Assembly (NCBI GenBank): GCA_029855935.1
Contig: JAGSHN010000027.1
Location: forward strand, 1 to 64,000
Source of the DNA: Candidatus Thorarchaeota archaeon
Lineage (GTDB): Archaea > Asgardarchaeota > Thorarchaeia > Thorarchaeales > Thorarchaeaceae
Direction of reading: 5' to 3'
Length of the DNA stretch: 64,000 nucleotides
The notes under the pieces are model-generated. The model did no database searches and was not told the origin of the DNA. It saw only the letters and a list, made by a program, of their open reading frames with translations. Made by a program: the position numbers and the translations under genes. How positions within the stretch are numbered: position 1 is the first letter of the stretch; every line of letters begins with the position of its first letter. Of this stretch, positions 21,101 to 24,100 are shown in pieces.

Positions 21101-24100
21101 GCTTGTCATTCGCACCATCGTCATCGGTGTCGGCCTTCATAGGATCGAGGCCCGGTATGGTCTTCTCATACTCGTCGGACAGACCATCGCCGTCCGTGTC
21201 GAAGCCCACGCCTGACTTCTTGTACTCCTCATCCCCAGGCTTGGGCGAGAGATCCCACGGTCCGCCCGGTTCCCACGTCCACGTCTTCTTCCACGACGCG
21301 AACAGGAACTCCAGCTTTAGCTTGAGGGTGAGTATCAACCGGAGCGTGATCTTCATGGGCGAGGGCTTGGACAGATCTTGGAAGAATGACAGGAATATCT
21401 CAAGCGAGCCGTCCAGCGACGCCGAGGCGACTATGATGTCAATTCCAAGGTGCACCGCTGCGCCAATCGTGATGGCCAGCGAGAGTGTGGACACCTCGGG
21501 TTCTATGGCACTGGCCATCTTCCGGACAATGTCGAGCTCGAGTCCGAACCAGACTTTGACGGTGATGCCGTCGAGGCCTATGTAGCTCGCCAGCTTAGAG
21601 AGCACACCGCCACCGACTCCGCCGGTCAGGAAATCAAGCAGGGTGAAGGTCTTGGAGACATCCACCTTCAGCGACAGCGTCCACTCAACAAGCCGGAAGA
21701 AGTCCTCCCACTCGAACATTCCGTTGCGGAAAGTGAACAAGTTCAGCACAAACTTTGCCGACCCGGAGAACGAGAGATCGAGGCCCAGGCTCTCCAGAAG
21801 GAAGCTCATGAATGCGTTCTTCGACGAGTCGAAGCCGGACACACCCAGCTCGGCACGGAACTGTGGCGATATCTCGAAGAATGAGAGGACCACCTTGAAG
21901 AACTCGCCGAGTGAACTCAGCGTGAATGGGTTGCGCCCCTCGAATAGTATCGAACGCAAGAACTCGAAGAACGGCGTCGGGTTCAGATGGAAATTCGCGT
22001 ACAGCCCGAGGTCAAAGGACAGCTCGAAGAGCGACCACTCCCCGAGGCCTATCGGAAGGTTCCCCATGTAGCCCATCAGGTCTGTGAAGCCTGCAAGCGC
22101 ACTGTTCAGACTGTCTTCGAGCTTCTCGAGAAGCGGAGTGATCTGCCCGGTCAACCAGTCGTAGATCTTGCCGAGCAGCCACTGCACGCCGCCCGTGAAG
22201 ATGTCCTTCACGGTGAACAGCAGATTCAGTACCTCAGAGACCATGTCCTCGTCGAACAGGCCCGTGAGCTTGCCAGCCACCGCCGACAGTATCTCCTGAA
22301 TCACGCTCTGGGGGCTCGGTACCTCATCCCTTGACAGACCGAAGGCCTGCGGGAAGAATGACTTGAGCAGCTTGAGTAATATGTCGACAGGCACGTCGTC
22401 AAATGACGGGTAGGTCGCGACAATGGAGCTGACAGCCACAAGGAGTGACTGCATTATTCCCTGGAACGACTGGCCACGCACCATGTTGATGATGCTGACG
22501 ACTCCGTTGACAATCTCGCCAACAGTGTTCAGTGTCTTCTCAACGTCGCCAGCCACTCCGTTGAGAACTCCCTCGCGGTCGAGAAGCCTGATGACGTTCG
22601 TCACCATCTGTGGCAACGAGCCGAGCTCAGAGAGAAAGTTCTCTACAGTGCTGCTGACGAGCTGCTTGAGCTTGTCACTGTCGGTCACAAGGGCGATTAT
22701 CCCGAGAACTGGTTTGAGTGCCCCATTGATGGCATCCATCACGTTCTGGAACTCTGATGTCGACAGACCAAGGGTCTCCACCAGCCGCTCCACGATGTCG
22801 AAAATGTTCGGTAGCTGTGATGGAGCAAAGCCATCGTTGTAAATACCTGTCACAAGAAGCATTGCGTCCTCTATAAGCTCGCGCGTGCTGGCTGGAACGG
22901 TGGACTGGAGGTATTCCGTCATCACGTCCTCAATCTGTGACCTGAAGTCGTCAACACTCGGGAGACCCTCCTCAGCGAACCTCTTTGTTACATTCATCAT
23001 CTCGCGAGCAAAGTCCTCTACCTGACCAACGACCTGTGACTCACCGACAAACTCCCGGACAATCTTGGCGGCAAGTTCCATGACATTCTCGGCCGTGAAG
23101 TGGTCGATCAGGTCAAGCGCACTCATACCAATCTCGATGAGGGCCATTGTCTTGTTGATGACCTCCTGACCAGCAGCGTCAGTGAGGACGTTCAGAGCTG
23201 TATTCAGGAGTTCCTGACCGACATCCTGAATGAATCGTGAGAAATCAAAACTTGACAGATAGTCGACAACCGACTTGATGAAGGCGATACCCCGCTGCAC
23301 AAGTGTCTCGGCCTCACCGAAGGTCAGGCCCAAGGTCGCAACGAGGGTCTTGTTGAGCAGCGCCTTCAGAACGTTGTTCGTGACGAAACTGAGTATCGCA
23401 TCAAAGGCCCCCTTTCCGCCGGAGAGGACATCGGAGATGAGGCTCCAGAGATCGTCACCAATGTTGAGAACGTTGTCAAGGAAGTCCATTACCTCCTGCG
23501 GAATGATCGCCGGCAGGAGTCCCTCTATCAACTCGAAGAAGACATCCTTGATGTTGCCGATGCCGCCACGAAGGTTAAACAGTGCCTTCAGGATGGGCTC
23601 TATGTATGGCTTGAGGCTCTCAGGGAACGGAAACTGGTCAGCGATTATGTTGAGGACTGACTTGAGGGGACTATCAAGGTCAAAGTCCTTCACTATACCA
23701 ATCAGGTCCATTATCTGACTCAGAGTTCCCATTACGTTCTCAATGGCGTCCGTGGGAATGGAGAGTACGTTCTCCCCCACACTCATCAGCAGGTCGAGCA
23801 AGACATCAATTATCTTTCCGACCGGACCACGAAGGCCCGAGTTGATAGGCAGAAGACCAAGAATGAACGAGCCCGGGTCAACATCTGCGGCTGACGTCAG
23901 CTTGATCACAGGCGTGAAGTTCTCGGGAAGCTCGTCTATGTCCAGACGCTCAAGCGAACCGTCCTCCTGCAACGAATAGGCGGCTGGCTCAATCCTTGCC
24001 GGATGCCTCGCCAGCATTGCCTCGTAGCGCTGCTGCGCGGCCGTTGGGTCGACCTCTCCAACAGGGTCAATTGGCTCGAATGTGCGTCTGAAGAACTCGT

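Follow-up and report, generated by a model that had tools for sequence, protein, structure and literature searches.

The locus and its two giant genes

We analyzed a 64,000-nucleotide stretch of DNA, here called the window, from a Candidatus Thorarchaeota archaeon (assembly GCA_029855935.1, contig JAGSHN010000027.1, positions 1 to 64,000). The reverse strand of the window carries two adjacent genes encoding giant surface proteins, and our subject is one part of one product, specifically the stretch encoded at 21270-23850 (-). A first-pass annotation had flagged this stretch as a lipid-binding-like head on a cell-tethered acidic stalk. The reading we favor, to which we give slightly less than an even chance, is that the flagged stretch forms the head of an Asgard surface complex with two subunits, that it represents a new domain family in which the large greasy interior plays a mainly structural part, and that its role lies in contact or adhesion.

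The gene in question (18189..24743, -) encodes a 2,184-amino-acid (aa) protein, a type I membrane surface protein composed of head, stalk, and anchor. The printed open reading frame (ORF P0001; 18189-24851, -) is longer. Collinear homologues align from Met37 onward, so translation is set to start at window position 24743, which defines both the gene boundaries and the protein length. Residue numbers given here are those of the printed ORF; subtracting 36 yields the mature numbering. The flagged stretch thus spans residues 334-1194 of the printed ORF, or approximately 298-1158 counted from the true Met. The signal peptide (24660..24743, -; residues 37-64) is read from a basic N terminus, a hydrophobic core, and a VWA-G site. 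The C-terminal transmembrane helix (18414..18476, -; residues 2126-2146) is a 21-residue hydrophobic segment followed by KK. Together, these two elements predict a type I topology in which the flagged head is outermost and extracellular, as the first-pass annotation had it.

The product of the neighboring gene (10244..18184, -) is a 2,646-aa type I membrane protein with a signal peptide, multiple FG-GAP propellers (Pfam FG-GAP), and a C-terminal transmembrane helix. The two genes are predicted to be co-transcribed: the stop codon of the head gene occupies 18191-18189, and the partner ATG lies at 18184, 4 nt after. In 16 of 17 main-family loci sampled from several Asgard families, the ORF that follows encodes a homologue of the partner, as it also does in Lokiarchaeum ossiferum and in a Heimdall metagenome-assembled genome (MAG). 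In at least three sequences, a single ORF encodes both proteins: P0073 (4,348 aa) and, in two genomes that share a genus (L027 and L028), ORFs with lengths of 4,901 aa and at least 4,716 aa. The order within the fusions is head, transmembrane helix, cytoplasmic linker of 50-60 aa, signal anchor, partner, and final transmembrane helix, an arrangement that would leave both ectodomains outside the cell. Because the coupling is conserved and fusions occur, the head protein and its partner likely work together, a conclusion for which the genomic evidence is good. The fusions further hint, by Rosetta-stone logic, that the two proteins act in a 1:1 ratio.

Upstream, the neighbor varies: it is a STAND NTPase gene here, a methyltransferase gene in L. 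ossiferum, and an epimerase gene in the Heimdall MAG. Thus, the operon seems to be limited to the two giant genes. The upstream intergenic region (24744-25335) is ~590 nt long; some 170 nt ahead of the start codon it contains aaaattttaaaac, an AT-rich sequence resembling a TATA element.

Between the head and the membrane lies an acidic calcium-binding TSP3 stalk (18852..21200, -; residues ~1218-2000), identified by Pfam (PF18884, E 1.9e-42) and by motif count. The tandem DxDxDGxxDxxE calcium-binding repeats that qualify a protein as TSP3-repeat reside in this stalk, not in the head. They amount to 21 strict TSP3 motifs; DxDxD sites number about 28, and Asp makes up 19% of the stalk. The first-pass annotation had recognized the stalk, and its tally of about 30 repeats was somewhat high. 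The stalk is followed by a membrane-proximal beta domain rich in N-glycosylation sequons (18501..18776, -; residues ~2026-2117), whose sequence suggests an Ig-like fold. On the other side of the membrane is a putative cytoplasmic tail of ~73 aa, rich in Lys, Ser, Thr, and Glu (18192..18410, -). The ectodomain (18192-24660, -) carries 20 N-glycosylation sequons, which cluster in the stalk and in the beta domain next to the membrane, with only four in the head.

The head: family and architecture

A word-index search recovered 67 homologous proteins. Most full-length members are 2,050-2,340 aa long and collinear over the whole head, and all named ones are labeled Thor-, Loki- (including L. ossiferum and Harpocratesius), Hod-, Heimdallarchaeota, or Promethearchaeota. 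An exhaustive phmmer search of 1.84 billion representatives returned 70 clusters, the full-length ones sharing the same architecture. A profile search for stand-alone beta domains (177-718 aa) turned up nothing but fragments from contigs of 1-2.4 kb. This genome carries a single copy of the gene, which was detected in 67 of the 251 Asgard genomes sampled (26 of the 89 high-quality ones), with a distribution that is patchy by family: 33 of 59, 9 of 10, and 0 of 54. As judged from these searches, the family is confined to Asgard archaea and constitutes a new domain family lacking a Pfam entry. In the literature, the family is not described, neither the L. ossiferum orthologue (NEF87_004127) nor its neighbors are mentioned, and no paper was found that connects Asgard archaea with FG-GAP.

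We modeled the head with AlphaFold2 on a 62-sequence alignment (mean predicted local distance difference test score [pLDDT] 79, predicted template modeling score 0.56). The first-pass annotation had described about 580 aa of helices followed by a sheet with one hydrophobic face, on a TSP3 stalk with a transmembrane anchor, and this anatomy proved right. What the model adds is an alpha/beta domain of ~260 aa preceding the helices (23826..24605, -; residues ~83-342). This N-terminal domain (N-domain) is Rossmann/flavodoxin-like in the model (pLDDT ~90) and in structure searches. Only four of its residues are invariant, a W, an H, an N, and a D; the His sits in a QHxVGMGN motif. CHAT and legumain are among its best fold matches. 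A caspase-like protease was nonetheless rejected as an identity for the N-domain, since none of its Cys residues is conserved. Look-alikes of the N-domain and of the helical domain in the ESM Atlas scored 0.80-0.83, which is noise level.

The helical domain (22092..23825, -; residues 343-920) comprises ~27 acidic amphipathic helices. DSSP assigns the helices continuously over model residues 282-859, which is 578 aa, at pLDDT 75-90. The helices have hydrophobic moments of ~0.5, and the domain is 13.8% D+E and 6.2% K+R, for a net charge of -44. Structure searches with the helical domain returned no fold match above the noise level for helical proteins. Among 86 homologues, the spacer between the N-domain and the sheet measures 559-692 aa, with a median of 580. 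Because its length is held near 580 aa, the helical region is a domain under a length constraint, not a floppy spacer. Its quarters are weakly similar to one another (best hhalign probability 80% over 44 columns), and a clear repeat array was not found; the domain may have arisen through expansion of helical hairpins as repeats.

The beta module follows (21252..22091, -; residues 921-1200). In the model, 10-11 long antiparallel strands extend across model residues 863-1132 (~270 aa; DSSP), connected in part by five Phe-rich loop helices, and the same strands appear when the beta part is folded alone with 76 sequences (pLDDT 79). Four strands that the first-pass annotation had quoted lie here, at residues 942-954, 1024-1036, 1057-1069, and 1168-1182. 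Each strand is 14-20 residues long and alternates strictly over its whole length, so that one face has a mean Kyte-Doolittle value of +1.6 to +3.8 and the other of -0.3 to -1.6 across 62 homologues; the hydrophobic stripe amounts to 7-9 residues per strand. This alternation is far beyond chance, since even homologues at 25-30% identity retain it. Between strands 5 and 6 lies a glycine-rich hydrophobic loop, LLDFLTGGVGGG...YIGLD (21570..21641, -), in which a T, a D, and several G residues are at least 90% conserved among 76 sequences and in which pLDDT falls to ~59-61, the lowest of the beta module. The first-pass annotation had assigned the glycine-rich patch FLTGGVGGGVLSKLA to the helical run; its place is in this loop.

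Evidence for how these parts belong together comes from structural alignments and from a second family. Alignments of the full model to membrane barrels begin at model residue ~218. The hairpins at model residues 225-272 therefore appear to extend the big sheet, and, with hairpins of the N-domain in the sheet, the helical domain would be an insertion between two parts of one beta structure. A short paralogous family of ~1,550 aa possesses the N-domain, ~100 aa of helices, the sheet, a TSP3 stalk, and a transmembrane helix, and it lacks ~510 aa of helices. Two sampled paralogue genes, L005:5389-10119 (+) and L006:3370-8007 (-), are also followed by a gene for a giant propeller protein, of the NHL/FG-GAP type in the former case and of the FG-GAP type in the latter. 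Because the paralogue keeps both the N-domain and the half-barrel in the absence of those helices, we take these two parts to be the conserved core. The unit of helices plus sheet that drew attention to this locus is, by this comparison, specific to the main family.

Leu, Ile, Val, Phe, and Met (LIVFM) make up 40.7% of the helical part and of the beta part alike. For reference, among proteins of the same window, polytopic membrane proteins contain 39-45% and soluble proteins 27-33%. No transmembrane-like segment was found in the head. The hydrophobic face of the sheet is also its conserved face: across 76 sequences, the mean entropy is 1.42 at hydrophobic-face strand positions (n=63) versus 2.00 at polar-face positions (n=79), and Phe is kept at 88-95% at several hydrophobic-face sites. 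In membrane barrels, by contrast, lipid-facing positions vary freely, and the bilayer belt spans 4-6 hydrophobic residues per strand, which is shorter than the 7-9 of the head.

Likeness to known proteins

The first-pass annotation compared the head to large lipid transfer proteins (LLTPs). Indeed, Foldseek with the whole head ranks MTP (6i7s) first (E 2.6e-5, probability 0.98), followed by lipovitellin, vitellogenin, and apoB, at template modeling scores (TM-scores) of 0.09-0.11 and root-mean-square deviations (rmsd) above 35 Å. LLTPs (MTP 6i7s, lipovitellin 1lsh, vitellogenin, and apoB) resemble the head in that a helical domain precedes large amphipathic sheets with interspersed helices. 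They differ in possessing an N-terminal beta-barrel of ~11 strands, in the place of which the head has its Rossmann-like domain; moreover, the helical domain of the head is about twice as long as theirs and is absent in the paralogue. When the beta domain alone is searched, MTP drops to rank 26 (probability 0.28), and LLTPs are not among the best 50 re-aligned or exhaustive structural matches, whether the query is the beta domain or the head in full. For the entire protein, Pfam finds only TSP3 (E<=0.01), with no signal for Vitellogenin_N or other lipid-transfer families. On these grounds, namely the low TM-scores, the missing Vitellogenin_N signal, the fall of MTP for the beta domain, and the N-domain that is not the LLTP barrel, we do not class the protein among the LLTPs; what stands of the original comparison is the ranking in the whole-head search. 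A profile of the head run against PDB sequences likewise produced no LLTP. It gave weak matches to designed helical repeats and to coronavirus S2 (E 0.005-1), which we read as helical composition.

The proteins closest in shape to the beta module are the walls of outer-membrane barrels, specifically the TonB-dependent FecA (1kmo) and FepA (1fep), CymA (4d5b), and the autotransporter EspP. In the ESM Atlas, the module finds TonB-dependent and OMP_b-brl_3 clusters at TM-scores of 0.52-0.55, and the module alone in Foldseek also finds outer-membrane barrels, but at TM-scores of 0.39 or less. Superposition on 22-strand TonB-dependent barrels gives an rmsd of 3.3-4.8 Å over 170-214 residues, versus 8-9 Å for 12-strand autotransporters. 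Because the fit is better to the 22-strand barrels, the curvature of the sheet is gentle, like that of a large barrel. The module is thus probably an open sheet, about half a barrel, with the curvature of a 22-strand outer-membrane barrel wall.

The beta module shares with outer-membrane proteins an antiparallel meander of amphipathic strands with barrel geometry. It does not share their lipid belt of bilayer height with less conserved lipid-facing positions; its stripes are longer and its hydrophobic face is more conserved than its polar face. The head further differs from outer-membrane barrels in lacking sequence similarity to them, in forming only about half a barrel, and in carrying Phe-rich helices in the loops at both ends. 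It is also an internal domain of a Sec-exported, transmembrane-anchored protein, in a host with one membrane and no Omp85: Omp85 (PF01103) is absent from this 97%-complete genome, while control genomes score. Asgard cells have a single membrane (PMC9834061).

Other comparisons were less productive. The first pass had also raised pore formers and fusogens, and the outer-membrane-barrel geometry of the sheet lends that idea something; no pore-former or fusogen fold match was found in the PDB or in BFVD, and Foldseek against viral structures returned nothing at E<=0.001. Repeating beta-groove proteins (VPS13/ATG2/AsmA/TamB) gave no Chorein_N or AsmA Pfam match and do not appear among the best 50 structural matches listed. 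Comparison of 76 beta domains with Pfam yielded no consistent match at E<=1.

Two further likenesses concern overall design. Giant adhesins of the head-stalk-anchor type, including those with TSP3 repeats (PF18884), have the same signal peptide, distal head, stalk of calcium-binding repeats, and anchor. The Asgard head differs from theirs in falling in no described family and in being far greasier than known adhesin heads, and the Asgard protein is obligately paired with, and sometimes fused to, a second giant protein. The second likeness, an analogy of logic only, is to integrin alpha/beta, in which an FG-GAP propeller subunit is combined with an alpha/beta-headed subunit on a stalk of small repeats, both being single-pass proteins with short tails that are made together. 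The Asgard N-domain departs from integrins in having no vWA domain among its top matches and no DxSxS metal-ion-dependent adhesion site (the family consensus reads YDPxDE). The Asgard pair also lacks EGF and PSI domains.

Possible roles of the head

The notion we favor is that of a structural head that serves in contact. The protein would be exported via its signal peptide and anchored by its C-terminal transmembrane helix, and the calcium-binding TSP3 stalk of ~800 aa would keep the head away from the cell. The conserved core of the head consists of the Rossmann-like domain and a curved, probably open sheet of 10-11 long strands, between which the main family inserts its acidic amphipathic helical domain with a fixed length of 580 aa. 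The hydrophobic face of the sheet would pack on the Phe-rich loop helices and on other helices, generating a large, greasy, protein-filled interior that is not permanently exposed to lipid. Finally, the head would bind and work with the co-translated giant FG-GAP propeller protein, and together they would serve contact or adhesion within the irregular coat of the Asgard surface.

The greater conservation of the greasy face relative to the polar one, stripes that exceed a bilayer belt, and the absence of Omp85 all speak for burial of that face. By our estimate, the five loop helices, together with a 53-residue helix that precedes the sheet, could cover roughly 60% of the sheet face. Acidic helices, as predicted here, would suit anionic membranes poorly. 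On balance, we infer that the greasy face packs against protein. Four observations weigh against that view. LLTPs are the top Foldseek matches for the whole model, their low TM-scores notwithstanding. The LIVFM content, 40.7% over 860 aa, is ~10 points above that of soluble proteins, which is more than an ordinary core requires. Conserved glycines lie on the polar face of the strands, as they do on the lumen side of membrane barrels. Last, burial leaves the conserved flexible loop LLDFLTGGVGGG unaccounted for.

One alternative is that the head handles lipid. A tethered head whose curved sheet and amphipathic helices enclose a cavity could take lipids or other apolar molecules from partners or from the surroundings, in a manner like that of LLTPs without descent from them. 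The whole-head ranking led by MTP suggests as much, as does the order of parts, in which, as in MTP, helices precede amphipathic sheets with helices between the strands. A hydrophobicity at the level of membrane proteins with no transmembrane segment is consistent with this possibility, and the conservation of the hydrophobic face, particular Phe residues included, would suit a defined surface for binding no less than a core. We consider lipid binding rather unlikely, however: superposition on LLTPs is very poor, none is among the best re-aligned matches, the beta domain by itself relegates MTP, lipid-transfer Pfam families give no signal, the paralogue dispenses with the helical domain, and the covering helices could occupy much of the face that would otherwise bind ligand. 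A quite unlikely alternative is that the half-barrel, singly or as an oligomer, enters a second membrane along with the glycine-rich loop. That membrane could belong to a neighboring protrusion, a vesicle, or a partner bacterium, and the outcome could be a tether, a pore, or fusion, with the stalk acting as a spacer. The structural matches of the beta module are all membrane-embedded barrels, and the strict alternation with conserved Gly on the polar face also points in this direction. Since the sheet amounts to roughly one half of a 22-strand barrel, a closed barrel could in principle form from two copies. Additionally, the conserved flexible loop (FLTGGVGGG) resembles fusion peptides in composition, and cryo-electron tomography (cryo-ET) shows parts of the protrusion network to be linked by densities (PMC9834061). 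Arguing in the other direction are the conservation of the hydrophobic face over the polar one, stripes that exceed the bilayer belt, the acidity of the helices, the lack of an Omp85 insertase, and the lack of pore-former or fusogen matches.

We can also picture the two activities combined. A metastable greasy head, with the half-barrel closed by a helical lid and displayed on a stalk that calcium stiffens, could open on contact and either extract lipids from, or insert into, the membrane of a neighbor. With its integrin-like FG-GAP partner, it would then form a machine for cell-cell contact, membrane bridging, or lipid exchange of the kind invoked in models of eukaryogenesis. We judge this scenario unlikely. 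At the opposite extreme, the flagged stretch could be a passive spacer or low-complexity hydrophobic filler that adopts no defined fold, or the ORF could be mis-called, as the absence of a Pfam family and of any named homologue might suggest. This we regard as extremely improbable given a 6.6-kb frame conserved from end to end in at least 67 proteins, a mean pLDDT of 79, a helical domain held at a median of 580 aa, and residues that are invariant.

The structural contact head, then, is the account we carry forward, and the setting in which it would operate is the Asgard surface. Cultured Asgard archaea lack an S-layer and possess an irregular surface coat of unidentified proteins (PMC9834061). 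Cryo-ET papers likewise describe Asgard cells as covered by an irregular coat of proteins yet to be identified (PMC9834061; 10.1101/2025.11.06.686947), and the coat is thought to mediate cell-cell contacts that are central to models of eukaryote origin (PMC9834061). The gene pair described here is an Asgard-specific candidate component of that coat, present across several lineages, and its orthologue in the cultured organism L. ossiferum allows direct testing.

The oddity of the head is that the geometry of an outer-membrane barrel and the hydrophobicity of a membrane protein come together in a secreted domain, and in an organism that has one membrane. A head that did handle lipid or enter membranes would represent a contact machine of a new kind; otherwise, it still provides a new domain family as well as a point of access to the Asgard surface.

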